From the NCBI GenBank assembly GCA_018896645.1, contig JAHIMF010000041.1, forward strand, positions 1,980-65,979: DNA of 64,000 nucleotides, read 5' to 3'. Numbering within the stretch: the first letter of the stretch is position 1; each line of letters begins with the position of its first letter. The notes under the pieces were generated by a model. The model did no database searches and was not told the DNA's origin. It worked only from the letters and a program-made list of their open reading frames with translations. Origin of the DNA: Patescibacteria group bacterium (lineage in GTDB: Bacteria > Patescibacteriota > Patescibacteriia > UBA2591 > JABMQE01). The position numbers and the translations under genes are program-made. Of the stretch, positions 950 through 63,147 are shown in pieces.

Positions 950-2171
950 ACTTCCCCCAGAAGACAAGGGCGGTGCGGAAATCGTTTGTTTAAATTTGGC
1001 CTGGGAATATCAAAAACAAGGTAATGAAGTGGGAGTTATCACAACTACTCGCAAGAAGGAATCACAAGGAAATTCTCTGGACCGCGGAGTGAAGGTCCAC
1101 CGGATTTATTCTAATTACCATAATCGTTGGCAGCCGTATGTCAGTTTGTATAATCCGTGGGTAGTTGCCAGGGTCAGGAAAATTTTGGCCAAAGAAAAAC
1201 CAGATATTGTCCATGCCCATGTTGTTCATAAACATTTGTCGTATTACAGCTTGAAGATAGTAAAAGAAATGGACATACCATTGGTTATTACTTTGCATGA
1301 TTGCCTATCAATTTGCTATAAAAAGTTCACTTGTTTTTATGACATTAAGGATTTGGATAATTCGCCTAATATTAATTATAAAGTCAAATCCTTAAAATGT
1401 TGGTGGTGCCAAAAATTAAGATATTTTCCTTTGCGCAATTTATTTGTCAGACGTTTTTTAAATACCTATCCTGATAAAGTCATAACAGTCAGTCAGGAGT
1501 TAAAAAAATTAGTGGAAGCCAATGGTATCAAAGTATCAGACACAATTCATAACGGTGTTGATGCGGATAATTTTAAGATTGATGATCAGGAAATTGAAAA
1601 TTTTAAAAAACTTTTTTCTTTGAGCGGGAAGAAGATAGTACTTTGCGCTGGTAGGTTGAATGAAACAAAGGGTTGTAATCAGCTTTTAGCTGCGATGAGG
1701 CGGGTTGGTCAAAATTTGACGGATGTTGTTTTACTGTTGCTTGCGAAAAAAGATGAATACAGCGAATCTTTGGTTAAGCGGGCCGCGGAGTCGGGCGTTA
1801 AAATAATTCTCACCGGCTGGCTGAACGGCAAAGATTTAATTGCGGCATATCATGCGGCCGATCTGGTAGTGACGCCCTCCATTTGTTTTGATACTTTTGG
1901 TATGGTAAACATTGAGGCAATGGCTTCTGAAAAGCCAGCCATCACCTCATGTTTTGGCGGCGGCAAGGAGATTGTAATTGATAACCAATCGGGTTATATA
2001 GTTAATCCTTTTGATGTTAATATATTCACCAAGCGGCTTAAAGCGCTGCTAACCGATGCTGACAAGGCCAAGGAGATGGGCGAATGCGGCAGAAAGATTG
2101 TGCAAGAGAAATTTCTTTTAGAATACTCGGCGCAAAAATATTTAAATTTATTTAAAGAATTAACCTCATGA
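924..2171 (+). CDS. glycosyltransferase family 4 (GT-B fold)
   Basis: 415 aa ORF. C-terminal 'NIEAMASEKPAITSCFGGGKEIVIDNQSGYIV' is the GT4 E-x7-E-like donor-binding region. Confidence 0.75.
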   Translation: MKILILMDKLPPEDKGGAEIVCLNLAWEYQKQGNEVGVITTTRKKESQGNSLDRGVKVHRIYSNYHNRWQPYVSLYNPWVVARVRKILAKEKPDIVHAHVVHKHLSYYSLKIVKEMDIPLVITLHDCLSICYKKFTCFYDIKDLDNSPNINYKVKSLKCWWCQKLRYFPLRNLFVRRFLNTYPDKVITVSQELKKLVEANGIKVSDTIHNGVDADNFKIDDQEIENFKKLFSLSGKKIVLCAGRLNETKGCNQLLAAMRRVGQNLTDVVLLLLAKKDEYSESLVKRAAESGVKIILTGWLNGKDLIAAYHAADLVVTPSICFDTFGMVNIEAMASEKPAITSCFGGGKEIVIDNQSGYIVNPFDVNIFTKRLKALLTDADKAKEMGECGRKIVQEKFLLEYSAQKYLNLFKELTS

Positions 2172-3613
2172 CGGATGCGATTTTATTTTTCCCAAAGACC
2201 GGGCCCAATTCAACGGCTCATCTCCCGATGAGCTTGCTTATGGTTGCGGCCCCTTTAGTTGAGCATGGTTATGAGGTTAAAATCATTGACCAGCGGTTAG
2301 AGGATGACTGGCAAGAAAAGTTGGCATCTGCTCTTAACGGCGGCGTTCTATTGGTTGGTTTTTCTGTGCTAACAGGCAAACAAATACTCTACGGTTTGGA
2401 AGCTTCTAAGTTCATTAAAGAAAACAGCAATGCTAAGGTGGTTTGGGGCGGGGTCCACCCCTCTTTATTGCCAAGACAAACTCTTGAGAATCATTATATT
2501 GATTTTGTAATTATTGGTGAAGGCGAGCAGGTGTTTGAGCGCTTGTTAGAGAAATTGAAAAATAGTGATGCCAATTATTCAGATGTGGATGGCCTCGGAT
2601 ATAAAAAAGATAGTGAAATATACATCAACGAGCAAAAGGATTTTATTGACCTAAATGCTCTGCCGTCGATTCCTTATAATTTAGTTGAAGTTGAGAAATA
2701 TGTTACCAAAAAATCATTCGCTTCGGGAAATCCTGGCCGAAATGTGGCTATTTATACCAGCCGCGGTTGTCCGCATCGTTGTGCGTTTTGCTACAACCTG
2801 AAATTTAACAAACGGCGCTGGCGAGGCAAGTCAGCCGAGAAGGTAATAATCGAGCTTGGACATTGGATAGACAGGTATAATATCAACGCTTTTGAAATTG
2901 AAGATGACGAATTTTTTGTTGATTTGAACCGCGTGCGTGAAATCTGCCTAAAAATCATTGAAAAAGGTTGGCAAATAGAAATATTTTCCAGCTCGCGGGT
3001 AAATTATTTAGAAAATATGGATGATGATTTTTTAAAATTGCTGTTTCGCGCTGGCTTCAAAACTTTGTCCTTCGGAGTAGAATCTGGCTCGCCAGAGATC
3101 CAAAAAGAAATTCATAAGGATATAACGAACGAACAGGTGTTCTCCGCAGTGAGGCGGTTGGGCAAAGCCGGCATCAATTCAAAATATTATTTTATGTGTG
3201 GTTTTCCCGGCGAGTCCATTGGGCAGTTGTACGAGACGATTGATTTGATTTACAAAATGAAGCAGGAGGACCGGCGCGTGCGCATTCCGCCTTGGCGCAT
3301 TTATACGCCATATCATGGCACCGAGTTGTATGAGAAGAGTATTCTGTCTGGTTGGCACCCGCCCAAGAACCTCAAGGCCTGGGCAAATTATGATTTTGAA
3401 ACAGCGAATATGCCCTGGCTGAACCGAAAAAAGAAAGTTATTATAAAAAACGCCGCTTGGATGTCAAAATATGTTGTTCTTGACAATAATGCCGGCGGCG
3501 GTATAAAATATAAACTGGGCCGGTTGTTTGGCAAGTGGATTGATTTCAGGTGGCGGCATCATTGGTTTTTCTTCGCGCCGGAAAGATCAATTCTATTGCT
3601 GGTAAAAGATTAG
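2168..3613 (+). CDS. B12-binding domain radical SAM protein (paralog 1 of 5)
   Basis: 481 aa ORF. N-terminal Rossmann-like B12-binding domain ('VVWGGVHPSLLP'), then 'SRGCPHRCAFCYN' carrying the CX3CX2C radical SAM cluster motif. Start overlaps the upstream stop (ATGA). Confidence 0.8.
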   Translation: MTDAILFFPKTGPNSTAHLPMSLLMVAAPLVEHGYEVKIIDQRLEDDWQEKLASALNGGVLLVGFSVLTGKQILYGLEASKFIKENSNAKVVWGGVHPSLLPRQTLENHYIDFVIIGEGEQVFERLLEKLKNSDANYSDVDGLGYKKDSEIYINEQKDFIDLNALPSIPYNLVEVEKYVTKKSFASGNPGRNVAIYTSRGCPHRCAFCYNLKFNKRRWRGKSAEKVIIELGHWIDRYNINAFEIEDDEFFVDLNRVREICLKIIEKGWQIEIFSSSRVNYLENMDDDFLKLLFRAGFKTLSFGVESGSPEIQKEIHKDITNEQVFSAVRRLGKAGINSKYYFMCGFPGESIGQLYETIDLIYKMKQEDRRVRIPPWRIYTPYHGTELYEKSILSGWHPPKNLKAWANYDFETANMPWLNRKKKVIIKNAAWMSKYVVLDNNAGGGIKYKLGRLFGKWIDFRWRHHWFFFAPERSILLLVKD

Positions 3614-3716: not shown

Positions 3717-5231
3717 ATGAAAGTTTTGCTGGTTAATCCGGCTCGCACCTATTATAAAGGTTCAAAGGGAGTGAGGTTAGGATTGCCTTTGGGTTTGATG
3801 TATATTGCCAGTGTTTTAGAGAAAAATTCCATTCCGGTAAAAATATTTGACACTCTTATTTCTGCTTCCACTAAAATTACAGAGCATTCAGACCATATTT
3901 ATCACGGGGTGGGTGATGATTTTTTTAAAGAGGTTATTGTCAGGGAAAAACCGGATGTGGTAGGGATTACTAGTCCGTTTACGGCTCAGGTTGGGAATTC
4001 TTGCGAGGCGGCTAGACTAATTAAAGAAGTTGATCCCAATATTTTTGTGGTTATCGGCGGACCTCATTTTGCAGTTTTGGGCCAAGAATTTTTAAAAGAA
4101 AACAAAAATATTGACGCCGCTATGATTGGCGAGGGCGAATTGGTAATGCCGACACTGCTAGAAACAATAGAAAATAACCAACCTTTTAATGCGATTGATG
4201 GATTGATTTATCGCTCTATTAATGACAGCGGAGAATCAGTGGTGATTGCGAATAATCCGAAGCTTATAAATGATTTGGATAGTTTGCCATTCCCAGCTTA
4301 TCATTTGATTGATATGGAAAGATACTTTGACTTTTTGAGAGAAGGTCTTTACGCTCGGCCGGGCCAACAAAAAAGGTCAATCTCAATGATTACGAGTCGG
4401 GGCTGTCCGTTTAATTGTGTTTTTTGTTCAATTCATTTGCATATGGGAAAAATTTGGCGCGCTCATTCGGCTGATTATGTAATTTCTCATATTGAGCGGG
4501 TGGTTAATAAATACGGGGTGGAGCACATATCGTTTGAAGATGATAATTTTACATCAAACTTCAAGAGATGCGAGAAGATCTTTGATTATTTATTAGAAAA
4601 AAAGATTAATATTACCTGGGATACTCCAAACGGAGTTCGGGCAGATACTCTAAATAAGGATTTGCTTAAAAAAATGAAAAAATCGGGCTGTACGGAGTTA
4701 GTAATCGGGACCGAGTCCGGAGATCAGGATACCTTGGATAATATTATTAAAAAAAATTTAAGATTAGAGAAAGTTGTTCAAGTTGCCCGATGGTGCAAGG
4801 AATTAAAGATTGAACTTAATTCTTTTTTCGTGATTGGTTTTCCCGGAGAAACTAAAGAGAAAATTCAGAAAACAATTGATTTTGCTTTTTTGCTTTATAA
4901 AAAATTTAACGTAAGACCGAATTTGATGACAGCTACTCCGTTAATCGGAACCGAACTACATAAGATAGTTGTCAGTAATGGATATCTAATAGAAGAGGTG
5001 ACGGCTGAAAATTTAGCTTTGGCAACTCAACCAAGAGGTAAGCCCTTAATCAAGACCCCCGAGTTTTCTCCTGAAGATTTAAAGGAGTCTGACAGAGAAT
5101 TGAAGACACGGTTAGCGAGATTAAATTTAGTCCGAAGATTAATAAACCCCAGGGAGTGGCTTAGGTTGTTGAGATTATTTTTAAGTAGGCCTTCAAGATT
5201 AATTTTGTATCTAAAAAAGCTTTGCGGTTGA
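3717..5231 (+). CDS. B12-binding domain radical SAM protein (paralog 2)
   Basis: 504 aa ORF. 'VVIGGPHFAVL' B12-domain motif, then 'SRGCPFNCVFCS' (CX3CX2C). Confidence 0.8.
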   Translation: MKVLLVNPARTYYKGSKGVRLGLPLGLMYIASVLEKNSIPVKIFDTLISASTKITEHSDHIYHGVGDDFFKEVIVREKPDVVGITSPFTAQVGNSCEAARLIKEVDPNIFVVIGGPHFAVLGQEFLKENKNIDAAMIGEGELVMPTLLETIENNQPFNAIDGLIYRSINDSGESVVIANNPKLINDLDSLPFPAYHLIDMERYFDFLREGLYARPGQQKRSISMITSRGCPFNCVFCSIHLHMGKIWRAHSADYVISHIERVVNKYGVEHISFEDDNFTSNFKRCEKIFDYLLEKKINITWDTPNGVRADTLNKDLLKKMKKSGCTELVIGTESGDQDTLDNIIKKNLRLEKVVQVARWCKELKIELNSFFVIGFPGETKEKIQKTIDFAFLLYKKFNVRPNLMTATPLIGTELHKIVVSNGYLIEEVTAENLALATQPRGKPLIKTPEFSPEDLKESDRELKTRLARLNLVRRLINPREWLRLLRLFLSRPSRLILYLKKLCG

Positions 5232-5287
5232 AATTTGACTTTTAGCGGATAATTAGCTAAAATTATACAAAAGATTACTTAAAAAGA

Positions 5288-8146
5288 ATGCCTAAACTGT
5301 TTAGAATATTTAAATATATTCCCGGAACCCAAAACAGGTTTTTTAAAAAACTTATTTTGGTTTTTTTCATTTTAGGTTTGATAGCTGTTATCTTTCTGAC
5401 AATTTTTGTGGCCGAGTATAAGGATTTTAATGACGTAATAAAGGCCAAGGTTCCGAAGTTGTCTTGGCTGGCTGAGTCTTACAATCTTCTGGATGTTCTT
5501 TATTTTTATTCTTATTTTCAGGAAACAAAATTACCTAAATACGAGATAATTATAGAAGAAGAAAATTTAAAAGTCCTTAATGAAAATTTGCCCGATATTA
5601 GTGAAATAACTTTGAGCGAGGAGTATAAAAAGAATTCAGTACCAGCGATCTTAAAATATAATGGAGAGGATTTTGAAGTAAAGGTAAGATATCGGGGAGA
5701 TTCGCAGGTTCATTGGGCATATCCTAAAAAGTCTTGGCGCGTGGAGTTAACAAATAAAACAATGGAAGACAAGGGTTTGATTAACGGTATGGAAAGTTTT
5801 AACTTGATTATAGGCGGGGACCGGTCTTTGGTCACAGAACAGCTAAGCTATTACCGATCCAAAAAATTAGGCTTAGCAGTGCCGCACAGCGAATTTGTTG
5901 ATTTAGAAATTAATGGAAAATATCAAGGAGCATATTGGCTTCTGGAGACCTGGGATAAAACATTCCTAGAGAAAAATAAAGTGGCATCAGATATAAACCT
6001 TTATGGCGAGAATGTTGAACGTTATGAACAAAAAAATATCTTTGCCAGTACTGACAGATGGACAAAATATACTTCAGACGAGATGGCGCTTTTTGATAAT
6101 TTTGCGGAAGTTGAGCAGTTATTGTACTTGTTAGAAATTCCAGACGAAGAATTTTATGAAAAAATTTCCGAACTGGTTGATTTGGACAGTTTCTATAAAT
6201 GGAACACGATTACTTTATTAGTCGGTGGCGATGGTCAGAAATATTCTAATAACATTCGAATGTATTTTGACAATACGCAGGGCAAGTTCAATTTTATTCC
6301 TTGGGATATCAGCCAGGTAGAAAGGCCAGAGCTTTATGATGCTTATGTAAGCCCGATTATAGACCGGATTTTAAGCAATCCAAGGTTTTTACAAGAGAGA
6401 AATAATTATTTATGGGATTATGTAAAAAATGAAGAAAATTTAGAGGATGACTTGAAATATTACGATGAGCTTTTTGGTAAAGTTAAAATTTCCTTTCATA
6501 AAGATCATTTAAAACTTTATAGTAATTTATTTTTTGACAGACAAGTTAGCAACCGAAGAAAATTGTTGATTGAACAGGTTGAGAACATAAAAAATAAACT
6601 TTCCGAAGCCAAGGTTTCGGTGGAAGCGAGGATTGACACTGATTTTAACAGTAGTCGAAGAGTAGTGGCGGACTTAAATTTTTTAACTCAAAATTTTAAT
6701 AGTTTAAACATAAAAAAAATTTCTTTTAGATGGGATGAGCCGGGAAGTTTTAAATTATATGATGATACCAATAATAATGGGATTTGGGACGATAAGGATC
6801 AGTTAGTCGGGAATTTTAAAAGAGATAATAAATGGCACGAAATTGATTTGAATAAAGAAATTTTTGCCAGGCGGGATTATGATGATTATAAGAAATTTAA
6901 ACAGGATAAGTTTTATCAAGAGAACTTTTTTAATCCCGTTAACATCATTATTACGCCATACCGTCTTTTCATAGTTTCGCAAGTACCTAAATTTGTGCCA
7001 GAAAATTTTAAATTTAAAATAGAGAATTCTTTAACCGGCAAAGAGGCCGATTTGACTAAGCGCTTTATTGACCTGGCCACTTTTGCTAATTTTGAAGATA
7101 TTTTTAAAAATAGAGAGCAATTTATTTTGGATAATCCGATTTTTAAGTTGAACGAAGAGGGGATAGTTTTACAAACTGGAATTTATCAAATTAACAAAGA
7201 CATAATAATACCCAAGAATACAAGCTTGACAATTCAAGTCGGGACGATTTTGAACTTTGCTTCTTCTACCTCCATGGTCTCTTATAGTCCGGTTAATATT
7301 TCCGGTACTAAGAATAATCCTATTATTTTTACGGCTCAAGATAAAAACAGGCCTTGGGGCGTCCTTGGTTTGACATCCGGAGCGGACGGCAGTATTATTA
7401 ATTATGCTATATTTGAACACGGAAGCGATGATTATATTAACGGAATCTATTTTTCCGGCATGGTTTCTAGTTATTTTGCCAAAACTGCGATTGACAACTC
7501 TACTTTCCAGTATGCCCAAGCTGATGACGGTTTAAACATCAAAAATTCTAGTTCTACTATATCCAATAGTTTTTTTCACCGCAATAGCGCTGATGGTCTA
7601 GATTTGGACTTTAGTAATTCTCGCGTGGAAAATAATCGTTTTATTGGCAATGGCAATGATGGTTTGGATCTCTCAAGTCATCAGCCATTTATTTTGAATA
7701 ATTATATTGAGGGATCGGGCGATAAAGGAATTAGCATTGGCGAAGATTCAAAAGCGATTATTATTAATAATTTGATGAAAGACAATAAAATTGGCATTGA
7801 GATAAAAGACCTTTCCGAACCGCAAGTGATTAATTGTACTATTATTGGCAATGAGATTGGCATAAATTCATACCAAAAGAAGGCAATCTTTGGAGGCGGA
7901 CATGGAAAAGTTTACAACTCTGTAATCTGGGCAAACGATGAGCAAATTACGTTTGACAATAAGTCCACAATCAGCATTAACCAAACTGACGTTGAGGGCG
8001 GTTACGAGGGTAATGGCAACCTGAATTTAGATCCAAAATTTGCTGATGATTTTAAAACTCAAAATAGCCAGATGAGGATTAATTTGGATTATTTAAAACA
8101 ATATTTAGAGATTTTGCCCAAAGAATTATTTATGGGAATATATTAG
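5288..8146 (+). CDS. CotH kinase-family protein with C-terminal right-handed parallel beta-helix (PbH1) repeats; N-terminal membrane anchor
   Basis: 952 aa ORF. 'VKVRYRGDSQVHWAYPKKSWRVEL' is the CotH signature (RGxS...PKKS[YW]). C-terminal third shows repeated 'NxxxxNxxDGLDL / IGxExxxI' beta-helix repeats. Hydrophobic N-terminal helix. Confidence 0.7.
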   Translation: MPKLFRIFKYIPGTQNRFFKKLILVFFILGLIAVIFLTIFVAEYKDFNDVIKAKVPKLSWLAESYNLLDVLYFYSYFQETKLPKYEIIIEEENLKVLNENLPDISEITLSEEYKKNSVPAILKYNGEDFEVKVRYRGDSQVHWAYPKKSWRVELTNKTMEDKGLINGMESFNLIIGGDRSLVTEQLSYYRSKKLGLAVPHSEFVDLEINGKYQGAYWLLETWDKTFLEKNKVASDINLYGENVERYEQKNIFASTDRWTKYTSDEMALFDNFAEVEQLLYLLEIPDEEFYEKISELVDLDSFYKWNTITLLVGGDGQKYSNNIRMYFDNTQGKFNFIPWDISQVERPELYDAYVSPIIDRILSNPRFLQERNNYLWDYVKNEENLEDDLKYYDELFGKVKISFHKDHLKLYSNLFFDRQVSNRRKLLIEQVENIKNKLSEAKVSVEARIDTDFNSSRRVVADLNFLTQNFNSLNIKKISFRWDEPGSFKLYDDTNNNGIWDDKDQLVGNFKRDNKWHEIDLNKEIFARRDYDDYKKFKQDKFYQENFFNPVNIIITPYRLFIVSQVPKFVPENFKFKIENSLTGKEADLTKRFIDLATFANFEDIFKNREQFILDNPIFKLNEEGIVLQTGIYQINKDIIIPKNTSLTIQVGTILNFASSTSMVSYSPVNISGTKNNPIIFTAQDKNRPWGVLGLTSGADGSIINYAIFEHGSDDYINGIYFSGMVSSYFAKTAIDNSTFQYAQADDGLNIKNSSSTISNSFFHRNSADGLDLDFSNSRVENNRFIGNGNDGLDLSSHQPFILNNYIEGSGDKGISIGEDSKAIIINNLMKDNKIGIEIKDLSEPQVINCTIIGNEIGINSYQKKAIFGGGHGKVYNSVIWANDEQITFDNKSTISINQTDVEGGYEGNGNLNLDPKFADDFKTQNSQMRINLDYLKQYLEILPKELFMGIY

Positions 8147-8147
8147 T

Positions 8148-9842
8148 ATGCGTTTGCGATTTAGATATTTTTTCAGATTAACAAAATTTATATTAGCGCC
8201 GCTCGTGGTGTTGTTTATGATTGCGGCGGCGGTTTTTGTTATAGAGGCCAAGGATTTGCGGAGCCAGCCCGTTTTTGCCCGACTGATTGCGTTTATAGAT
8301 GCCAGAGGCATAAATAAGGTTTTAGATATTTTTTATCTTCATCATTCTTTTGAAAAGCGGAAATTGCCTACCTTCAAGCTTACTGTTGAGAAAGATTCCG
8401 AAAAAAAATTAGATGAGATGGCCCGGGCCGCGATTGCGGCGGATTTTCTCTTTGATGAAAATAAAGAATTTGTGCCGGCGACTCTTGTTTATAACGGTCA
8501 AAAATATCAAGTTGATATCCGTTATCGCGGGGACGGAGATATCCACTGGAAGTTCCCCAAAAAGTCCTGGAGGATTCGACTGAAAGGTGGCGAGCACATA
8601 ATGGGTTTTAACAATTTTGATTTGATTGTGCCCCGGGACCGGGGATTTGTTCTGGAAAATTTGAATAACTACCGAGCCGGAAAGCTGGGATTGCCGTCTT
8701 TGCGGGACCAGTTCGTTGACCTTGAAGTTAATGGCAGTTTTCATGGCCCATATTGGCTGGTAGATCATGACTACAGTGAATCATTAGAGGTTAGCAAGCG
8801 GCCGGCTGATGTCAATACTTACGGCGGTTATGTGCGGGGAAGGCCTCAATGGGAAGATACAAATGATACGGGCCGGTGGCAGAAGTACAGCGAGGACAAG
8901 GTTTCGCAGTTTGATAATTATGCGGAAATGGATAAACTTCTCGACTTTCTCAAAAATACAGAAACAGAAGAATTCTATTTGAGGATTGGGGAGCTCGTGG
9001 ACCTTAGAAGTATGTATGCTTGGCAAGTCCTGACGGAACTTTCTGGCAGTGATCATAATGGGTTTGGAAATAGCAGGTTATATTTTGATAACACTTTGGG
9101 TAAATTTAGTATTATCCCTTGGGACATAGAAGGCGGCGGGGCTCCACCTGACTATGCCTCCAATCTTTTGCTTGCCCGCATTTTTAAAAATCCTCAATTT
9201 TTACACGAGAAGAACGAATTACTGTGGAGCTATGTATCGGACGCGGCTAATTTGAAGGATGATTTGGCCCATTATGACGAATTATACAACGAAGTTAAGA
9301 CATCCTTTTATAAAGACCGCAAGAAGCAGGTAAGCAGTTACCAGTTTGATAAAGAGGTTAGATACTGGAGAGATACCTTAGAAGCACAATTTGAGGTTGC
9401 TAAAGAACGGTTTGCTCGAGCCGAGGTGCTTATTGGGACGGGTGCTATAGAAGGGACGACACGTTTTGATGTCATAACAACGAATTATGCCGGTTTAGAT
9501 TTTAGGGGAGTGTCATTTAAAAGTGATGCAAGCCGGGATTTTCAAGATTTAGCCTTATATTTTGACAGTAATTACAATGGTAATCTGGATTCTGCTGACG
9601 AATATATTGATAAATTTGAATTTGAGGATAATAGTTATCGCGTTCAATTTTCAAAAATTCTTTTTGCCGAAAGGAACTACCCGGATGATTATCGTGATTT
9701 TACAGCTTCCAAAGCAGAAATTTTACCGACCAGATACACTTTTTTTGTTGTTGGCGCGCCACTCGCGGCCTCTTTGACTTTTGATATCACTAATGTTTTT
9801 ACCGGTGAACAAGCAACGAAGTTGACAAACCAGTTAAAATAA
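8148..9842 (+). CDS. CotH kinase-family protein (second, shorter paralog); N-terminal membrane anchor
   Basis: 564 aa ORF. 'VDIRYRGDGDIHWKFPKKSWRIRL' is collinear with the CotH motif of the upstream protein, and downstream blocks (FDN..AE.., GKF..IPWD) are shared. Confidence 0.7.
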   Translation: MRLRFRYFFRLTKFILAPLVVLFMIAAAVFVIEAKDLRSQPVFARLIAFIDARGINKVLDIFYLHHSFEKRKLPTFKLTVEKDSEKKLDEMARAAIAADFLFDENKEFVPATLVYNGQKYQVDIRYRGDGDIHWKFPKKSWRIRLKGGEHIMGFNNFDLIVPRDRGFVLENLNNYRAGKLGLPSLRDQFVDLEVNGSFHGPYWLVDHDYSESLEVSKRPADVNTYGGYVRGRPQWEDTNDTGRWQKYSEDKVSQFDNYAEMDKLLDFLKNTETEEFYLRIGELVDLRSMYAWQVLTELSGSDHNGFGNSRLYFDNTLGKFSIIPWDIEGGGAPPDYASNLLLARIFKNPQFLHEKNELLWSYVSDAANLKDDLAHYDELYNEVKTSFYKDRKKQVSSYQFDKEVRYWRDTLEAQFEVAKERFARAEVLIGTGAIEGTTRFDVITTNYAGLDFRGVSFKSDASRDFQDLALYFDSNYNGNLDSADEYIDKFEFEDNSYRVQFSKILFAERNYPDDYRDFTASKAEILPTRYTFFVVGAPLAASLTFDITNVFTGEQATKLTNQLK

Positions 9843-9854
9843 GCTAATGTGTGA

Positions 9855-9979
9855 CATTAAAGCAATTATGAAAATACAAGAATAACGACGAATAGTTATT
9901 TTTATATTCTTGTATTCTTGTTATTTTCATAGCAGGTATCCCTCTATTTTTATAATTTCATAACTTCAATGCTTTAATG
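9855..9979. repeat. MITE-like intergenic element, family A (copy 1): 10-bp terminal inverted repeats CATTAAAGCA/TGCTTTAATG with an internal hairpin
   Basis: TIRs seen at 9855-9864 and 9970-9979. Internal inverted repeat GAAAATACAAGAATA...TATTCTTGTATT. Related copies at 29784-29906 and 25383-25426. Confidence 0.5.
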
Positions 9980-9993
9980 TTTTTTAATGAAAC

Positions 9994-10767
9994 ATGAAAC
10001 CCACTCTTCATTTCCAAAGATTTGAATTTAAATATCCAATGCATAAGCCAACGGCCGAGAAGATAATTCCAGCCCTATTAAAATATATGAGCTGGGATCC
10101 TTTTGTTTCGGGAAGGGGAGATAAATCTTACTTGGTAAATAGTCTTTATTTTGACAATAGCGGTTATGGCTGTTATTTTGAGAAGGAGTCGGGCGAGAAG
10201 TTTAGGAAAAAATTTCGTTTACGAGTTTATGAGAGCGAAGTTAAAGATGATACGAACATTTTTGTAGAAATAAAGAGAAAAAATAACGCTTTGATAATAA
10301 AGGACAGAGTGCATTTGCCAGCTAAAGATGCGAGGAGGATTTTAGTGAATAATAAATTGAATAGCTATGTTGGGCAAATCAGCGACGATGACATGATGGT
10401 TTTAAAAGAATTTTTATGGACTAAGAATTATAATTGCATGATGCCCAGAATTATGGTAGCATATAGGAGGAAACCGTTAGTAGCCAAGACAGACAGGAAT
10501 GTTCGGGTGACATTTGATTATGACATCCGCGCAAAATTAACAAACTGGTTTAATTGTAATAATTTTGCCTGGAAAGAGGTTTTGCCAGGCAGTTTAATTT
10601 TAGAGATAAAATATAATAATATCCTGCCTTTTTGGCTGCACGAGATTATCCAAAAATATCAACTGGAGCGGGTCGCTTTTTCAAAATATTGTAATGCGGT
10701 AAGGGCTTGTATGCCGCAGATTGACGATGGAAGCGGAAGGGACAGCGGAAACTATTTGGGTGTATAA
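9994..10767 (+). CDS. VTC-domain (polyphosphate-polymerase/CYTH-like) protein
   Basis: 257 aa ORF. N-terminal 'QRFEFKY' is typical of bacterial VTC-domain proteins. Sits in the usual genomic context with CotH and DUF4956. Confidence 0.6.
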   Translation: MKPTLHFQRFEFKYPMHKPTAEKIIPALLKYMSWDPFVSGRGDKSYLVNSLYFDNSGYGCYFEKESGEKFRKKFRLRVYESEVKDDTNIFVEIKRKNNALIIKDRVHLPAKDARRILVNNKLNSYVGQISDDDMMVLKEFLWTKNYNCMMPRIMVAYRRKPLVAKTDRNVRVTFDYDIRAKLTNWFNCNNFAWKEVLPGSLILEIKYNNILPFWLHEIIQKYQLERVAFSKYCNAVRACMPQIDDGSGRDSGNYLGV

Positions 10768-10786
10768 CTTTTAATAATAAAAAATT

Positions 10787-11470
10787 ATGCTAGACAACTT
10801 GTTTGGATCGGGAGGAGCAACAACTTTATCCGTTGGAACAATTATTGTTAACATCACACTCACTTTTTTATTGACGTTTATTATCGCCCTGGTTTATAGA
10901 AAGACCCACAAAGGATTATCATATTCCCAATCATTTGTGTTTACTTTGGTGCTTTTGGGGGTATTAATTTGTGTAGTGATGATGGTAATTGGCAGCAGTG
11001 TAGCTCGGGCCTTTGGAGCCCTGGGCGCATTTTCTTTAATTCGTTTTAGAACGGCAGTTAAAGACACCAAGGATACGGCTTTTGTGTTTTTTGCGGTAGC
11101 TATCGGAATGGCGATTGGAACTAATAATTATCATATTGCCATAATTGGCGTGATAATTATTTCTTTTATCATATTAATTTTGTCCCGTATAAATTTTGGC
11201 TCAATCAGGAAATATGATTACATTCTAACTTTTATGAGCGATAGCGATAAGGTCGCTGATGGGGCCACAAAACCAATTTTTAGCAAGTATCTGAAAACAA
11301 GCAATCTTTTGAATGTCTCGGCAAAGGAACATGGCAAGATTTTGGAAATGACTTTTAATGTTAAATTTTTTAGCGAAGACGACAGGGACAACCTTCTTAA
11401 AGAACTCAATGCGATTGAAGGCGTGAGCGAGGTAAATTTAATTAGCGCTAAGAATGACATTGAGTATTGA
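10787..11470 (+). CDS. DUF4956-like membrane protein
   Basis: 227 aa ORF. Three or four N-terminal TM helices plus a C-terminal soluble domain. Position immediately after the VTC gene matches the conserved CotH/VTC/DUF4956 arrangement. Confidence 0.45.
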   Translation: MLDNLFGSGGATTLSVGTIIVNITLTFLLTFIIALVYRKTHKGLSYSQSFVFTLVLLGVLICVVMMVIGSSVARAFGALGAFSLIRFRTAVKDTKDTAFVFFAVAIGMAIGTNNYHIAIIGVIIISFIILILSRINFGSIRKYDYILTFMSDSDKVADGATKPIFSKYLKTSNLLNVSAKEHGKILEMTFNVKFFSEDDRDNLLKELNAIEGVSEVNLISAKNDIEY

Positions 11471-13251: not shown

Positions 13252-14712
13252 ATGGCTCGTATTGTACTAATAAACCCACAATTTAATTTACCAAGAAATA
13301 CCTATGATGAATCTTTGAACATGGGTATTATGTCAATTGCAAGCTATCTTGACGCTCATGGTTTGGATACAAAAATTCTTGATCAGGCGCGGCAGCGGAC
13401 ATTTTGGGATAGCTTGGGTAGGGAGTTAGCAGATGCTGAATATGTTGGTTTATCGGTCATGACGACTCAAATTCCAAATGCTTTAAAAGTAACCAGAGAA
13501 ATAAAAAAAAATAACCCAAATGTCAAAATTATTTGGGGTGGTATTCATCCAACGTTATTCCCCCGAGAAACAGTTGCCGAACCATTGATTGATTTTGTTG
13601 TTTATGGAGAAGGTGAAGTGCCATTACTTAAGCTCATACGCGGCGTTTCCATGGCAGAAATTAAAGGTTTGGGATATAAACATGATACTAAATGTATTAC
13701 TAACCCCCCAGGCGAGCTGTTTGATCTTAACGAGCTGCCGGTGTATAATTGGAATTTATTGCCTCAAGAGATACTTGAAAAAATGTCGCTTGTTCCGTTG
13801 GCAATGAGTCGTGGTTGCCCCCACCGATGCGCCTTTTGCATAAACACCATTACCAAAAACAAATGGCGAAGCATGTCGTTGCCCAAAATTATTGAGAATT
13901 TGCGATTGGTTAAAAAATCCCCCTATCTTAGAGGTAAATATGCTTCGTTTTCATTTGAAGAAAATTTTTTTGTCAATAAAGAACGTGTCAAAGAGATATG
14001 TAAGGCGATTATTTCAGAGTCGCTTTTAGTAGAATGGGAGGCTCCTTGTCGGGCTGATTATATTCGTGAAGGGTTTGTTGATGATGAACTTTTAACCTTA
14101 TTAAAAAGAGCCGGTTTACGGCGGATGGGCATTGGCGCCGAGTCGGGTTCAAATAGAGTACTTGCTCTTATTAAAAAAGATTTAACAGCCGAACAGACAA
14201 TTTATGCCAATCAAAAATTAGCTGAACATGGAATCAGTCCTTATTATGGTTTTATGGTGGGTTTACCTGGTGAGACTTGGGATGATGTGATTGCTACGTT
14301 AAATCTTATCGATCGAATCAAAAAAGATAATCCCCAGGCAGAAATTATGGGACCCCAGCCATTTCGGTTATATCCGGGCTCAGAATTATATAATGAGTGT
14401 ATTAATTTGGGCTGGAAGTCGCCGAAAAGCCTTAACGAATGGAAAAAAGTAATTAATGAGGAGCTTAATTATTTAAATATGAAAAATTATCCTTGGGTTA
14501 AAAATCCTGCAGTTATTGAAGCAATTGATGCATATGCCCGCTTTGGTTCAAATTCTTTCCGACAAGCCATGGCATTAGGTGTTAGCGCTCCCCGCATTTT
14601 TAAATTTTTGTTTGCTGTTATATGTAAAATTCGTTGGAAACTAAGGTTTTTTCGTTTCCCTTATGAATACCTTTTAGCGAAAAAATTAGTGACACTTTTT
14701 TCGCGAAATTAG
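13252..14712 (+). CDS. B12-binding domain radical SAM protein (paralog 3)
   Basis: 486 aa ORF. 'IIWGGIHPTLFP' plus 'SRGCPHRCAFCIN'. Collinear with the 2168 and 3717 proteins. Confidence 0.8.
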   Translation: MARIVLINPQFNLPRNTYDESLNMGIMSIASYLDAHGLDTKILDQARQRTFWDSLGRELADAEYVGLSVMTTQIPNALKVTREIKKNNPNVKIIWGGIHPTLFPRETVAEPLIDFVVYGEGEVPLLKLIRGVSMAEIKGLGYKHDTKCITNPPGELFDLNELPVYNWNLLPQEILEKMSLVPLAMSRGCPHRCAFCINTITKNKWRSMSLPKIIENLRLVKKSPYLRGKYASFSFEENFFVNKERVKEICKAIISESLLVEWEAPCRADYIREGFVDDELLTLLKRAGLRRMGIGAESGSNRVLALIKKDLTAEQTIYANQKLAEHGISPYYGFMVGLPGETWDDVIATLNLIDRIKKDNPQAEIMGPQPFRLYPGSELYNECINLGWKSPKSLNEWKKVINEELNYLNMKNYPWVKNPAVIEAIDAYARFGSNSFRQAMALGVSAPRIFKFLFAVICKIRWKLRFFRFPYEYLLAKKLVTLFSRN

Positions 14713-20931: not shown

Positions 20932-22347
20932 ATGAAAATATTATTAATAAATGAACCCTTGCGCGACAGTATCGCTGATAATGACCAAGTTAACCTAGCC
21001 GAAGAAAGCCACATGATTCCTCCTTTGGGTTTGCTTTATATTGCTTCAGTTATTAAAAAAAAATCAACTCATAATGTTAGGCTTTTTGATTGCCAAGTTG
21101 ATAAGTTATCATATGATGGTATTCGAGAAGCAGTAAAGAAAATTAAACCCGATGTCGTGGGCATGAATACGCTCACCTTTACCCTTATTGAGGTTTTGGA
21201 AGTGGCGCGACTGGTGAAAGAAGTTGATCCTAAAATAAAAGTTATTTTAGGCGGGGTTCATGTAAACATTTACCCCGAAGAAACCATTTCATTTCCTGAA
21301 GTGGATTTTTTAATACTTGGCGAGGGAGAGAATGTTATTGTTGAACTGTTAGATGCGATTAGCGATGAGGACAAGCTACGGCAAGTGACTGGCGTTGTTT
21401 TTAAGAATTCTCAAGGTGAAATTATAAATACTGGAAAGCGCCCGCTTATAACTAATCTGGATGAAATACCCTTTCCAGCGCGCGAGTTAACGGCTTATCA
21501 GAAATATACAGGCTTGCTCTCAAGCGAGTCGCCAATTACCAGTATGTTAACCTCCCGCGGTTGTCCATATAATTGTTTATTTTGTCACCGTCCCCATTTT
21601 GGCAGAATTTTTAGGGCTAGGAGCGCTGGCAATGTAGTAAAAGAGATGATACTTTGTAGGGATATGGGTATTAAAGAAATTATTATTTATGATGATACAT
21701 TTACGATTGATAGACAGCGTGTGGTTGATATTTGTAAGCAGTTAATAGATAATAAGGTGAAGATTAAATGGGACGTGCGAGCTCGCGTAGATACAGTTGA
21801 TAAAGAATTACTTAATTTAATGAAAGAAGCTGGCTGTGTGCGGATTCACTATGGTGTGGAAGCAGGGACTCAAAAAATATTAGATGTTTTGCGTAAAGGA
21901 ATAACACTTGATATGGCTTATGATGTTTTTAAAATGACAAAGCGGGCCGGTATCGGAACTTTGGGTTATTTTATGATTGGCTCACCTCGGGAAACCAGGG
22001 AAGATATTATGGCTACGATAAAATTTGCTACTAGTTTGAAGGCGGATTATATTTTTGCTGGCATCACTACTTTATTTCCAGCAACTGATTTATATCAGAT
22101 GGCGCTTAAGGAAGGTGTGATTAAAACAGATGTATGGAAAGAGTTTGCGCGTAGCCCACAAGAGAATTTTGTTCCGCCAATCTGGGATAAAGAGCTTTCG
22201 CAAGAAGAACTTGGCGAATTGATTAAAATGTTTTATAGAAAATTTTATAAACGGCCTAGCTATATTATTAAGAACCTATTAAGCATCCGGTCTCTCGAGG
22301 AGTTTAGGCGAAAATTTTCAGCCGGGTTTAATATTTTAAGAATTTGA
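20932..22347 (+). CDS. B12-binding domain radical SAM protein (paralog 4)
   Basis: 471 aa ORF. 'VILGGVHVNIYP' plus 'SRGCPYNCLFCH'. Confidence 0.8.
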   Translation: MKILLINEPLRDSIADNDQVNLAEESHMIPPLGLLYIASVIKKKSTHNVRLFDCQVDKLSYDGIREAVKKIKPDVVGMNTLTFTLIEVLEVARLVKEVDPKIKVILGGVHVNIYPEETISFPEVDFLILGEGENVIVELLDAISDEDKLRQVTGVVFKNSQGEIINTGKRPLITNLDEIPFPARELTAYQKYTGLLSSESPITSMLTSRGCPYNCLFCHRPHFGRIFRARSAGNVVKEMILCRDMGIKEIIIYDDTFTIDRQRVVDICKQLIDNKVKIKWDVRARVDTVDKELLNLMKEAGCVRIHYGVEAGTQKILDVLRKGITLDMAYDVFKMTKRAGIGTLGYFMIGSPRETREDIMATIKFATSLKADYIFAGITTLFPATDLYQMALKEGVIKTDVWKEFARSPQENFVPPIWDKELSQEELGELIKMFYRKFYKRPSYIIKNLLSIRSLEEFRRKFSAGFNILRI

Positions 22348-22351
22348 TGAT

Positions 22352-23764
22352 ATGTCTACACTACTCGTAAATCCTCCCTACAGCGAAAAGATATACCAAT
22401 CTAAGAAAGCGCCTTCGGTTCAGCCGCCGATTGGCTTGGCCTACTTGGCGGCTTTTTTAGAACAGGAAGGCGAGAAGGTAGGAATTTTGGATGCCAATGC
22501 CGAACAGTTGAGTGTTGAAGAAACCGCCAGGCGTATTTGTGATTCTGGCGCTAAATTTATTGGATTTGGCGCGGTGACTCCGATTATTCCTATTGTTTAT
22601 AGAATTGCCGGGTTGGTGAGAAAGGATTCTGATGCAGTAATTTTTGTTGGCGGTCCCCATGTCACTTTTATGGACGATGTCACCCTAAATGACTGCCAGG
22701 CAATTGATTATATTGTTCGTGGTGAAGGTGAGCTTGTGATAAACAATTTAATAAGGACGGTTAAAGTTAATGGTGATATTTCTAGAGTTCGGGGGATTAC
22801 TTACAGAAAGGGTGATAGTATTGTAAAGAATGAGCCGGAAAAACTTATTACTGATATTAATACACTCCCGTTTCCGGCCCGGCATTTACTGCCATTGGAT
22901 TTATATCGGCCATCGCCGTTATTTGATCGTGGTTATAAAGGCAAGAGCTATGCCCGGATTATGACGACCCGGGGTTGTCCGACTCGCTGTATCTTTTGTG
23001 TTTCTCCTCATTTCTGGGGTCGAGTTCGGATACGCAGCGCCGAGAATGTTTTTGCTGAAATAAAACATTTGTATGATATTTATGATGTTAGACACATAGA
23101 TTTCTTGGATGACACTTTAACTTTGGCGCCATCACGGATGGAGAAAATCTGCGACCTAATGATTGAACATAGTTATAAGATTAATTGGACTTGCTATTCC
23201 CGTGTTGATACTCTTAGCGAGGCGCTGGTCAAAAAAATGAAAATGGCTGGGTGCTCTGTTATTCAGCTCGGGGTAGAAAGCGGGAATCAGAAAATTATTA
23301 AAAGAATCAAAAAAAATATCCGTCTTGAGGATGTGGAGCGGGTGGCGCGGATTGTTAGAAAAAATAATATTAAACTGATGGCAGACTTTATGATTGGCCT
23401 GCCCGGCGAGACCGAGGAAACAGTGATCCAAACGATTGACTTTGCTAAAAAAATAAAGCCCAACATTGCGGCTTTTTGTATTACTACACCCCTGCCAGGT
23501 ACTGAATTATACTGGGAGCTTCGTCGTGAAGGCAAGATTAAACCAGGTTATATCTGGGGCAATATGGGTTTGCACTATGGTTCAAACTATAGCACTGAAT
23601 ATTTATCAAGCGGTCGGTTAAGTGAATTATATCACTTAGCTCATAAGAAATTTTATTTGCGTTTTAAGTTTTTTGGACAGTCGTTTGTCTGGCTTTTAAA
23701 AAACCCGTATGATATAAAGAATTATTTTTACTTGGCAAAAGATTTGCTTTTAAAGAGGGTTTAG
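22352..23764 (+). CDS. B12-binding domain radical SAM protein (paralog 5)
   Basis: 470 aa ORF. 'IFVGGPHVTFM' plus 'TRGCPTRCIFCVS'. Lies 4 nt after paralog 4, forming a tandem pair. Confidence 0.8.
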   Translation: MSTLLVNPPYSEKIYQSKKAPSVQPPIGLAYLAAFLEQEGEKVGILDANAEQLSVEETARRICDSGAKFIGFGAVTPIIPIVYRIAGLVRKDSDAVIFVGGPHVTFMDDVTLNDCQAIDYIVRGEGELVINNLIRTVKVNGDISRVRGITYRKGDSIVKNEPEKLITDINTLPFPARHLLPLDLYRPSPLFDRGYKGKSYARIMTTRGCPTRCIFCVSPHFWGRVRIRSAENVFAEIKHLYDIYDVRHIDFLDDTLTLAPSRMEKICDLMIEHSYKINWTCYSRVDTLSEALVKKMKMAGCSVIQLGVESGNQKIIKRIKKNIRLEDVERVARIVRKNNIKLMADFMIGLPGETEETVIQTIDFAKKIKPNIAAFCITTPLPGTELYWELRREGKIKPGYIWGNMGLHYGSNYSTEYLSSGRLSELYHLAHKKFYLRFKFFGQSFVWLLKNPYDIKNYFYLAKDLLLKRV

Positions 23765-29701: not shown

Positions 29702-29783
29702 AAGCCCATTATAGCTAATTTTTACAGGTTTGTCAATTTTGTTTTCCTTGTATAATTTTGTGGGGGATGATATAATTAGAATG

Positions 29784-29906
29784 CATTAAAGCATTAAAAA
29801 TATAAAAATAAAATAATATAAAAATAAATGAAGAGGTGATTTTATATTATTTTATTATTTTATTTTTATATTCTTGTATTTTTATAATCGTTCTCGTGCT
29901 TTAATG
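29784..29906. repeat. MITE-like element, family A (copy 2), with the same 10-bp TIRs CATTAAAGCA/TGCTTTAATG and a long internal imperfect palindrome
   Basis: TIRs at 29784-29793 and 29897-29906. The interior 'TAAAGCATTAAAAATATAAAAATAAAATAATATAAAA' has its reverse complement downstream. Shares TTTTTATATTCTTGTATTTTT with copy 1. Confidence 0.5.
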
Positions 29907-29946
29907 TTTTAGTATTTTTATATTTTTAAGTTTTTATATTTTTATT

Positions 29947-46390: not shown

Positions 46391-47098
46391 ATGTCAAAAC
46401 CAAAGATATACCCATCGGTTGTTACTTGGGGAGCGGATTGGAGACAGCAATTAAGAGATGTTAAAAAATTGAAATTAAGGGAGGCGACTGTTTTTTTGAC
46501 TGGAATTGACAAAGATGCACATCAAGAATTCTATAGATTTTTAAAAAATAGCGGGATTAAAAAAATACCTCATATTCATTTGCGGCATGATTTTGATGAG
46601 GACGAAATTAAAGACTTGACTAAAGAATATGGCGTAGATTATTTTACGATTCATTTTAAAACAGTTGAGCATTATTTGAATTGGAATAAAAGCTTGAAGG
46701 ATAAAATGTGTGTTGAATATAATGCTGATGAATGGGAAGGAGTAAAAATTAACGATTTTGAATTTATAAAAGAGATTGCCGGGGTTTGTGTTGATATTGG
46801 GCACTATGCCGCTGAAAATTTGTTGAATCGGTTTAATACCATCGAATTGTTTAAAAAAGTGATTGACACTTATCCCGTTGTAATAAATCATCTAAATGGC
46901 AAATATTTTGTTAAAAACAAAGATGGATGCGATGAAATAAAGCGAGGACATTTAGTGGTTGACATAAAAAAAGATTTTGAATATTTGGATGATGTGCCTA
47001 GAAAATTATTTACTAAAAATGTTTATCTTGAATTAAGGAATACGATACCGGAACAGATTGAGATAAGGGATTATTTGTATGGGAAATATTTTAAATAA
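46391..47098 (+). CDS. hypothetical protein between rfbB and the epimerase/reductase
   Basis: 235 aa ORF with no recognisable motif. Sits within the rhamnose gene set. Confidence 0.3.
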   Translation: MSKPKIYPSVVTWGADWRQQLRDVKKLKLREATVFLTGIDKDAHQEFYRFLKNSGIKKIPHIHLRHDFDEDEIKDLTKEYGVDYFTIHFKTVEHYLNWNKSLKDKMCVEYNADEWEGVKINDFEFIKEIAGVCVDIGHYAAENLLNRFNTIELFKKVIDTYPVVINHLNGKYFVKNKDGCDEIKRGHLVVDIKKDFEYLDDVPRKLFTKNVYLELRNTIPEQIEIRDYLYGKYFK

Positions 47099-49141: not shown

Positions 49142-49861
49142 TTATTCTTCCATTCTGCGCAGACACTCCCAATATAACAGTTCGCAATTACGGCAATCTA
49201 CACAAACTGAGCTCCAGGGCGTGCTGCACATGCGGACACCTCTACCCTTATAGCGTTTCAGTATTTCCAGTAAGACTTCGGTTTTGATGCAGTAATAATC
49301 ATTAAGAATACTTTTCCGCCATTCGTAGTCTTCTGACATAACCACATTTGCCTGATTATAATAACGCATAAATGTCATAACAACCGGTACTCCTTGAGCC
49401 AGGTAATACTCAACTAGTGAATCCTGAACTCCCAGGCCCCAGCTATTTGTTCTGATGCGCACAAACATTACATTCTTTGGGCACTCAACGAACAGGGACT
49501 CTCTGCCATTACAAGTAAAGACTACTGGTGCCGGAAAGTCAAAACGAGGATGCGAGGTGTTGAAGAAACGGTGTTCATACTGGTTAGTGGATTCAATAAC
49601 ATATTCTCGTTGAATATTGCTATCATGACCACTATTAATACGAACAATTTTCCCTGCCGCTTCTTGGGGAGTAGGAAACAATGGCTTGTCTAGTGTCCGA
49701 TAGAATCTCCCACCATTATAGAAGCACTCGGCACATCCCATGGGACATTCTCCGGTCTGGGGGATACAGTCAATCAAATTAGTGTTAGCCAGCTTGGGGT
49801 TTCTGTCCATAATCTTCTCCTTTGAGCACAATTGTTTCAGGATATTTCGGAAGAGGTTCAT
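49142..49861 (-). CDS. Cys-rich hypothetical protein with N-terminal CX3CX2C motif, in a GC-rich islet
   Basis: 239 aa ORF. 'GECPMGCAECFYNGG' near the N-terminus and 'CSTPWSSVCVDCRNCELLYWEC' at the C-terminus. Local GC is ~48% against a ~33% background. Confidence 0.4.
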   Translation of the reverse strand: MNLFRNILKQLCSKEKIMDRNPKLANTNLIDCIPQTGECPMGCAECFYNGGRFYRTLDKPLFPTPQEAAGKIVRINSGHDSNIQREYVIESTNQYEHRFFNTSHPRFDFPAPVVFTCNGRESLFVECPKNVMFVRIRTNSWGLGVQDSLVEYYLAQGVPVVMTFMRYYNQANVVMSEDYEWRKSILNDYYCIKTEVLLEILKRYKGRGVRMCSTPWSSVCVDCRNCELLYWECLRRMEE

Positions 49862-62834: not shown

Positions 62835-62865
62835 GACTTTCTCCTTTTTATTTTTGTAGTTGAAT

Positions 62866-63147
62866 TTATTTCTCCGGCACAATATTGACAAAATTTGTCA
62901 ACCTTAATTCGCCAGTAAATTTTTTTACCTTCTTTTTTACAAATTTAACAATACCAGGAGCTGTGGCGAAAAGAGTGTCGTCATTGCCGCGTTTGACATT
63001 TTCGCCGGCGTGATATTTAGTTCCCCGTTGGCGGATTATAATAGCGCCGGCTTTGGCAAGTTGTCCGCCGTATAATTTTACGCCCAATCTTTGTGATTGT
63101 GAGTCGCGGCCAAGGGCTGTTGAGCCGCCCGCTTTTTTATGCGCCAT
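62866..63147 (-). CDS. rpmA: 50S ribosomal protein L27
   Basis: 93 aa ORF. '[29 protein letters not shown]...[16 protein letters not shown]' is the classic bL27. Confidence 0.9.

Follow-up and report, generated by a model that had tools for sequence, protein, structure and literature searches.

Four genes at positions 5288-11470 of a 64,000-nucleotide stretch of DNA from a Patescibacteria group bacterium (contig JAHIMF010000041.1; the whole stretch is called the window below) constitute what sequence comparison and structure prediction delineate as one conserved cell-envelope module, with products that are predicted to be partitioned over the cytoplasm, the membrane and the exterior of the cell. 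They encode two proteins of the CotH family, a VTC-family protein and a DUF4956 protein. The comparative data, together with the window itself, redefine the core of this module and its distribution: the VTC and DUF4956 genes form a near-obligate pair, the CotH gene is interchangeable with a gene for a Cthe_2159 family protein, and the module occurs outside the Pel loci. The gene triad as such has already been published; new is the variant found in the Patescibacteria, with its beta-helix fusion, its tandem CotH genes and its Asp-to-His active site.

The genes of the cassette

A preliminary description of the window, made from the letters alone, had named four genes, and four open reading frames (ORFs) are indeed found on the plus strand at exactly the coordinates it gave. 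The first, CotH-1 (5288-8146, 952 aa), matches the CotH family of Pfam (PF08757; E=9e-27, 94.8 bits, residues 133-341) and, in its C-terminal part (residues 717-912), the Beta_helix (PF13229; E=1e-12) and NosD (PF05048; E=6e-8) families; the parallel beta-helix repeat TIGR03804 of NCBIfam is found in it as well. The start codon of CotH-2 (8148-9842, 564 aa) follows 1 nt after the CotH-1 stop codon, and its product matches CotH (E=6e-18, 65.9 bits) and carries no beta-helix. The VTC protein (9994-10767, 257 aa) matches PF09359 over positions 2-233 of the 235 profile positions (E=3e-43, 148.6 bits). The DUF4956 protein (10787-11470, 227 aa) matches PF16316 (E=1e-13, 51.8 bits), with a weak match to MgtC. 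All CotH, Beta_helix, NosD, VTC and DUF4956 matches exceed the Pfam gathering score (23.8 bits for CotH, 23 for VTC and 30.6 for DUF4956), so that each of the four families to which the genes had been assigned is recovered above its threshold. The CotH-2, VTC and DUF4956 products have identical counterparts in NCBI under the name 'Patescibacteria group bacterium'.

VTC and DUF4956 as the core of the module

A scan with an alignment of eight VTC sequences, in which one genome per GTDB species was considered, yielded at least 555 relatives, and 80 of the loci were retrieved. The ORFs of the loci were searched with hidden Markov models (HMMs) built iteratively from the window proteins; locus counts are given out of 84. 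The VTC gene adjoins a DUF4956 gene in 81 of the 84 loci, and of the three exceptions two are cut off by the end of the contig. A CotH gene is present in the same locus in 53 cases and a gene for a Cthe_2159 family protein (PF14262) in 18, the two never being found together. In these 18 loci, where CotH is missing, the Cthe_2159 gene is the next gene (PF14262 E-values down to 1e-101), and an N-terminal hydrophobic segment is found in 15 of the 18 encoded proteins. On the basis of these linkage counts, the conserved core of the module consists of VTC and DUF4956, accompanied by an exported third partner. The triad of CotH, VTC and DUF4956 had been described as a recurrent association. As far as recurrence goes this is borne out by the counts, but CotH turns out to be a replaceable member and not part of the core.

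The gene order is CotH-VTC-DUF4956 in the Patescibacteria-type loci, where the CotH protein usually carries a beta-helix (~950 aa), and VTC-DUF4956-CotH in the Clostridia and other groups. In the 62 loci from outside the Patescibacteria (L022-L083) the VTC-DUF4956 pair is followed by CotH in 35 and by a Cthe_2159 gene in 18, and an OmpR-type response regulator and a histidine kinase are encoded within 4 kb in 27. These 62 loci are not Pel loci, contrary to PMC12345266, in which the synteny of the three genes was stated not to be found beyond the Pel loci. Lookups from three DUF4956 homologues gave the same picture: in all three the VTC gene was adjacent, CotH was within 4 kb and the locus was a glycan locus.

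The cassette in the window is flanked by a cell-surface glycan locus of ~37 kb (Pfam scans of the ORFs between 176 and 36969), in agreement with the glycan-locus context that had been proposed for it. The enzymes encoded there include two polysaccharide deacetylases, GT4 and GT2 transferases, a membrane glycosyltransferase of the PMT_2 type, a DegT aminotransferase, GNAT and FemAB-like acyltransferases, several methyltransferases, a Bac_transf priming transferase, a Wzy_C/TPR protein, GtrA and five B12-binding radical SAM enzymes. PelG, PelD, PelE or any other Pel-specific family was not found among these ORFs in the Pfam scans. The pathway is of the Wzy/Bac_transf type, and for the sequence in view, which begins at window position 1, membership of the cassette in a Pel locus was rejected.

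The Cthe_2159 proteins are carbohydrate-binding proteins that, like the CotH proteins, are exported, and they occupy the same place in the operon, after VTC-DUF4956. The Cthe_2159 crystal structure is reportedly a right-handed beta-helix. Unlike the CotH proteins of the window, they lack a CotH domain, and a comparison with hhalign of the beta-helix of the window type and the Cthe_2159 proteins gave no homology (probability 0.7%). The beta-helix and the Cthe_2159 partners would thus be analogous, a relatedness not being supported by hhalign.

Patescibacteria-type cassettes were also encountered in five MAG records that are labelled 'uncultured Gammaproteobacteria' or 'Pseudomonadales' (L004, L006, L007, L016 and L017). 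The VTC proteins encoded there are 40-54% identical to that of the window, and the taxonomic labels look doubtful.

The VTC protein as a candidate polyphosphate polymerase

Mutagenesis of the yeast protein Vtc4 has identified K200, R264, R266, K281, Y359, R361, S457 and K458 as required for polyphosphate synthesis and E426 as a Mn2+ ligand, K458 being the sole residue that the inactive proteins Vtc2 and Vtc3 lack (bioRxiv 10.1101/2023.01.27.525886; R264, R266 and E426 also in PMC9911596). A profile of 16 bacterial VTC homologues matches Vtc4 (3G3Q) with E=3e-16, and six residues of the window protein, K13, R75, R77, K94, Y157 and R159, are placed by direct alignment on Vtc4 K200, R264, R266, K281, Y359 and R361, respectively. 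In addition, the invariant residues E204-x-K206 and S230-K231 match the patterns E426-x-K428 and S457-K458, from which we infer that E204, S230 and K231 are the equivalents of E426, S457 and K458. This equivalence is based on the motif pattern and on the full-length Pfam match, since direct alignment of the C-terminal third failed: a phmmer search of this part against the PDB gave no match to Vtc4. The motifs R.R.Y, E.K, Y.R and SK[YF] are present in all 84 VTC proteins. The assignment to the triphosphate-tunnel family made in the preliminary description is thus upheld by a full-length match to PF09359 and by the presence of the tunnel-residue set.

An SPX domain or a Vtc1-type C-terminal transmembrane domain was not found in the 257 residues by Pfam or hydropathy analysis, so that the eukaryotic domain architecture is absent; indeed, none of the 84 VTC proteins contains a transmembrane segment. 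The position of Vtc4 Thr198 is taken by an invariant glutamate, E11, with which half of the ExExK motif of the CYTH proteins is kept. The protein is a candidate polyphosphate polymerase with a predicted cytoplasmic location. Polyphosphate synthesis had been suggested earlier for the module; such a role of the CotH proteins finds no support, the candidate for the polymerase being the VTC protein.

The DUF4956 protein

The DUF4956 protein is the most conserved member of the cassette, with 50-60% identity across the Patescibacteria as compared to ~45-50% for VTC and ~30-40% for CotH, and it has 2357 homologues at E<=1e-5. Its match to the MgtC/SapB family of NCBIfam (E=1e-9, residues 68-218) is below the cut-off of that family. 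The AlphaFold model (AF2; pLDDT 73.6) contains five helices, at residues 16-40, 48-68, 72-90, 94-111 and 115-134, which are followed by a cytoplasmic domain with the order beta-alpha-beta-beta-alpha-beta (ACT-like, aa 145-220). With the HMM match, the transmembrane domain and the ACT-like domain, the protein belongs to the DUF4956/MgtC-SapB-YhiD group. The invariant basic motifs THKGLSYSQ and RFRTAxKDxKD are located at the predicted cytoplasmic ends of the helices.

Architecture and topology of the CotH proteins

Both CotH proteins of the window possess a single N-terminal hydrophobic helix that is preceded by 5-6 Lys/Arg residues and no Asp or Glu. In CotH-1 the hydropathy peaks at 3.27 (aa 23-41), with six Lys/Arg and no Asp/Glu in the N-terminal flank, and the model has a helix at aa 17-43 (5336..5416, plus strand, as are all elements of CotH-1), which is predicted to act as a signal anchor with the N-terminus inside and the remainder outside. 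An N-terminal hydrophobic segment is found in 54 of the 55 CotH proteins of the surveyed loci. Because of the N-in signal anchors of both window proteins and the hydrophobic segments of nearly all relatives, the kinase-fold domains are expected to face outward. Surface display through an N-terminal anchor had been proposed before, and both proteins indeed obey the positive-inside rule.

In the AlphaFold model of CotH-1 (AF2; pLDDT 91, pTM 0.78) the anchor is followed by the CotH (kinase-like) domain (aa 84-440, 5537..6607; Pfam, profile, model and Foldseek), by a beta-sandwich linker domain (aa 442-595, 6611..7072; secondary structure of the model) and by a right-handed parallel beta-helix (aa 620-900, 7145..7987; Pfam Beta_helix/NosD and model). 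The structure prediction thus reproduces the anchor, the CotH domain and the beta-helix of the preliminary description, and adds the beta-sandwich, which had not been mentioned. The beta-sandwich domain is also found at the C-terminus of CotH-2, as HMMs built from this region match both window proteins. That the CotH domain has the fold of the solved CotH structures is supported by a profile of 20 CotH sequences, which matches B. cereus CotH 5JD9 over residues 2-357 (E=9e-42), and by Foldseek, in which the CotH-1 model matches B. cereus CotH 5JDA (E=2e-17, TMt 0.79); membership in the CotH family is therefore supported by both HMM and fold. The signature RGxS...PKKSW had been ascribed to both proteins. 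PKKSW is present in both, but RGDS occurs only in CotH-1, the corresponding sequence of CotH-2 being RGDG.

The beta-helix repeats noted earlier are present as well: in the model, three strands recur regularly over ~280 aa (620-900). Foldseek retrieves a GH87 glucanase, Pel9A, the AlgE4 and AlgG epimerases, PL6 lyases and NosD (E=6e-7 to 1e-3; lyases, epimerases and GH87 at 6e-7 to 1e-4). With its PbH1-type repeats and its right-handed beta-helix the domain falls within the polysaccharide-active fold of PF13229/NosD. A cluster of Asp and Lys residues (D747, D769, D772, D774, D791, D794, D812 and K840) is invariant across 51 sequences, which suggests that the domain is no passive stalk but has a ligand-binding or active site. 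The beta-helix and CotH are either fused or encoded by separate neighbouring genes (L003 and L009).

The active site of the CotH proteins

CotH of B. subtilis is inactivated by the mutations D228Q and D251A. These residues correspond in B. cereus CotH to D224 (in NFDGFVHN) and D247 (in PWD), respectively. A full search with HMMER, covering 1.84 billion proteins, gave 2831 matches at E<=1e-3 and 192 at E<=1e-30, and 151 representatives were used for an alignment of the clade. In the column of the catalytic Asp (D224) a His is found in 133 of the 151 representatives, irrespective of a fusion to a beta-helix, and an Asp in none. Loop indels leave the register of D224 uncertain by 1-2 residues; still, no column of the loop holds a conserved Asp. 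The other residues of the site are largely retained. The metal-binding Asn (B. cereus N229) is kept in 149/151 and the Asp of PWD in 137/151, both also in CotH-1 and CotH-2, and conservation is >=85% in the Lys/Arg, Ser and Glu columns that the clade has in common with B. cereus CotH. The CotH proteins that belong to the same module in the Clostridia retain the catalytic Asp.

The preliminary description had treated CotH as an atypical protein kinase. Of the kinase catalytic residues whose lack was to refute this call, the Mg-binding Asn and the Asp of PWD are kept, but the essential catalytic Asp is absent from the clade, which partly refutes the call; since the equivalent of D228 is not conserved, 'atypical protein kinase' should not be assumed. 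Given the replacement of the Asp by a conserved His, the CotH site probably works by a chemistry other than that of the classical Ser/Thr kinases. A large CotH subfamily, with 192 representative clusters at E<=1e-30, is set apart by the Asp-to-His switch, and transfer of the annotation 'protein kinase' to it is unsafe.

The conserved loop motif of the clade is S-x-H-Q (G-S-x-H-Q). The loop reads GSDHN in CotH-2, where Ser and His are kept, and GGDGQ in CotH-1, where both are lost, so that the D224 column holds a His in CotH-2 and a Gly in CotH-1. A 50%-identical ortholog of CotH-1 (L086, 3711-6545) has GSDHQ...PWE where the window protein has GGDGQ...PWD; the loss of Ser and His is confined to the genome in which CotH-2 is encoded as well. 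From these sequences CotH-1 looks locally degenerate and CotH-2 looks like the conforming copy.

An Asp directly precedes the D224 column in both window proteins and was considered as a shifted catalytic base. It is an unlikely feature of the clade, as the column is variable and has an Asp in only 18 of the 151 representatives.

Relation to known systems

In Gram-positive Pel loci, cotH and the genes for a polyphosphate polymerase and for DUF4956 (with DUF4832) have been described as contiguous accessory genes (Whitfield et al. 2020, PMC7112168). Mutants of S. intermedius in which the DUF4956 gene SIR_1592 or the CotH gene SIR_1594 was deleted had less Pel and aggregated less, and SIR_1592 was described as an MgtC-like transmembrane domain plus an ACT domain (PMC12345266). 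As in these accessory genes (SIR_1592-1594), the same three families are contiguous in the window, beside exopolysaccharide genes, and CotH is predicted to be exported. Unlike them, the window has the order CotH-VTC-DUF4956, two CotH copies and no DUF4832, lies in a locus that is not a Pel locus, and encodes a CotH protein that is fused to a beta-helix instead of FN3, with His in place of the catalytic Asp. The two Pel papers were all that a literature search for a characterised bacterial VTC/DUF4956 system retrieved, and they contain no biochemistry; in this respect the literature searched agrees with the preliminary description, which had called the chemistry of the triad open.

With the eukaryotic VTC complex (Vtc4/Vtc3/Vtc1) the window system shares a homologous tunnel domain with the same catalytic residue set, and a VTC gene that lies beside one for a small multi-helix membrane protein with basic residues at the cytoplasmic face. 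It differs in that the catalytic domain is a separate soluble protein without the SPX sensor. The membrane partner is unrelated to the three-helix Vtc1 domain, being MgtC-like with five helices and an ACT-like domain. Whereas synthesis is coupled to translocation in the eukaryotic complex, translocation by the window system is putative.

The spore-coat CotH kinase of Bacillus (5JD9/5JDA) has the same fold as the window proteins, with the RG...KKS motif, the Mg-binding Asn and the Asp of PWD. The window proteins are different in facing outward, in lacking the essential Asp (D228) and in having the additional beta-sandwich and beta-helix; the solved spore-coat sequence has no signal anchor. During sporulation, spore-coat CotH acts in the mother cell, a compartment that contains ATP.

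A possible function of the module

Bacteria display or release polyphosphate, and many of them encode exported proteins of the CotH fold. In the Patescibacteria, the Clostridia and other groups, the present module joins in one operon the genes for an enzyme that resembles a polymerase, for a membrane protein dedicated to it and for an exported protein with a kinase fold or a beta-helix. We tentatively favour the reading that it couples polyphosphate synthesis at the membrane to a phosphate-related modification of a surface glycan, which on the sequence evidence has, in our view, somewhat less than an even chance of being correct. Docked on DUF4956 at the inner membrane face, the VTC protein would use ATP to make polyphosphate, and DUF4956 would hand the chain, or phosphoryl groups from it, to the outside; this export step would parallel that of eukaryotic Vtc4, which feeds the transmembrane channel of Vtc1/3/4. 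The outward-facing CotH domains, without access to ATP, would use this supply to phosphorylate or polyphosphorylate a surface glycan or glycoprotein made by the locus, while the beta-helix would hold the polymer. CotH-1, in which the His is lost, may serve mainly as the subunit that bears the beta-helix and binds the substrate. The module would then point to phosphate-based modification of a surface glycan in the Patescibacteria, a glycan that may matter for attachment to host cells.

One may go further and propose that VTC and DUF4956 together act as a polyphosphate synthase-exporter, that the polymer is the ATP-independent donor, or the group transferred, for the His-using CotH proteins, and that the beta-helix or the Cthe_2159 protein holds the chain or the acceptor glycan; the His of the clade could possibly act via a phospho-His intermediate. 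We regard this proposal as unlikely. If true, it would explain both how polyphosphate leaves bacterial cells and how kinase-fold proteins outside the cytoplasm are supplied with energy. In the literature searched neither an export route for polyphosphate nor a phosphoryl donor for kinases outside the cytoplasm is described.

Several observations weigh against a coupling of polyphosphate synthesis to glycan modification. In 13 loci neither CotH nor Cthe_2159 is present, and no fusions of VTC to DUF4956 or to CotH occur among the homologues listed. The MgtC proteins, relatives of DUF4956, are described as acting through partners, F1Fo ATP synthase and PhoR, and not as channels (PMC12345266), and in the same study of S. 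intermedius effects are named for the mutants in DUF4956 and CotH only, the polymerase mutant not being among them. With half of the CYTH motif kept, a hydrolase-type reaction of the VTC protein is possible, and the loss of the catalytic Asp could make the CotH domains non-enzymes. Finally, the literature searched contains no measured activity for a bacterial VTC, DUF4956 or non-spore CotH protein.

The main rival explanation, which we consider somewhat unlikely, is that two independent functions are merely co-regulated. VTC and DUF4956 would make or regulate polyphosphate inside the cell, as a store of phosphate or energy, DUF4956 being an MgtC-like anchor in the membrane and a sensor through its ACT domain, and the CotH and beta-helix proteins would be separate surface adhesins or glycan processors. 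The relationship of DUF4956 to MgtC/SapB/YhiD and its ACT-like cytoplasmic domain fit such a division, as does the description of MgtC as affecting phosphate metabolism via protein partners, and no channel-like structural match was obtained for DUF4956. Moreover, the pair is found without a nearby CotH gene in three Patescibacteria loci (L005, L006 and L012), and the OmpR-type two-component system beside the cassette in 27 loci of other phyla would fit a regulated phosphate response. Yet an exported third gene, CotH or Cthe_2159, accompanies the pair in 71 of the 84 loci, in unrelated phyla and in two gene orders, which makes co-regulation alone hard to credit, and in the Patescibacteria the module lies inside surface-glycan loci.

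It is less probable still, and in our opinion decidedly unlikely, that the CotH domains of the clade are non-catalytic and serve as pseudokinase scaffolds or as adhesins that present the beta-helix, comparable to the host-binding fungal CotH invasins. The Asp that is essential in B. subtilis (D228Q is inactive) is absent from all 151 representatives, and CotH-1 in addition lacks the conserved Ser and His of its clade. However, the Asp has been replaced by a near-invariant His within the conserved S-x-H-Q, and the metal-binding Asn/Asp and the Lys/Arg, Ser and Glu columns have been kept at the level given above. The near-invariant His and the maintained columns argue for purifying selection on the active site, not for decay.

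That the VTC protein is another triphosphate-tunnel enzyme (a tripolyphosphatase, an NTP-dependent cyclase or a signalling enzyme), in a module without polyphosphate, we consider very improbable: the invariant E11 at the Thr198 position and the absence of the SPX and Vtc1-type domains would agree with it, but nine Vtc4 residues needed for synthesis have conserved counterparts (six aligned, three by pattern, the K458 equivalent included), and the match to the Pfam VTC model is full-length.

Non-coding elements

A sigma-70-like promoter match (TTGACT-17-TAAAAT; 5235..5263, plus strand) is located 25 nt upstream of the CotH-1 start codon and is a possible promoter of the cassette, although a consensus match of this kind is weak evidence. 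The region contains 42 promoter-type matches, as compared to 28.4 +/- 6.2 in shuffled sequences. As the promoter and terminator scan is thus barely above the shuffles, no operon boundaries can be called. The intergenic spacer between CotH-2 and VTC (9843..9993, plus strand, 151 nt) is structured, with nested inverted repeats that would form a long nested hairpin in RNA (minimum free energy -34.6 kcal/mol, z = -5.5). A related palindromic element is found at 29775-29915, in the intergenic region that separates the divergently oriented Bac_transf and Wzy_C genes. The two elements share the outer stem CATTAAAGCA / TGCTTTAATG and the inner motif ATACAAGAATA, and may function as a terminator or an operator or represent a small mobile repeat. 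The tRNA and Rfam scans of the window gave no match.

Other genes in the window

The five paralogs of the B12-binding radical SAM enzymes (2168-3613, 3717-5231, 13252-14712, 20932-22347 and 22352-23764) are all located in the one glycan locus. The one encoded just 5' of CotH-1 is nearest to the Sden_1168 family of P-methyltransferases, with a score of 246 bits that is far under the cut-off of 575. In two close relatives (L085 and L086) CotH or VTC is likewise immediately preceded by B12-binding radical SAM genes.

An S8 subtilase with FG-GAP repeats is encoded near Bac_transf both in the window (32317-34353) and in an unrelated Patescibacteria locus with the cassette (L089, 11454-12675); the subtilase may be a recurrent neighbour. 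Six ORFs of 139-837 aa gave no Pfam match at E<=1e-5 (41024-43537, 46391-47098, 49142-49861, 50066-50920, 56489-57037 and 62472-62891). Finally, a 681-aa NDP-sugar 4,6-dehydratase/epimerase (44299-46344) is split by an intein, with a match to Intein_splicing (E=1e-11) and a homing-endonuclease domain of the LAGLIDADG_3 type.

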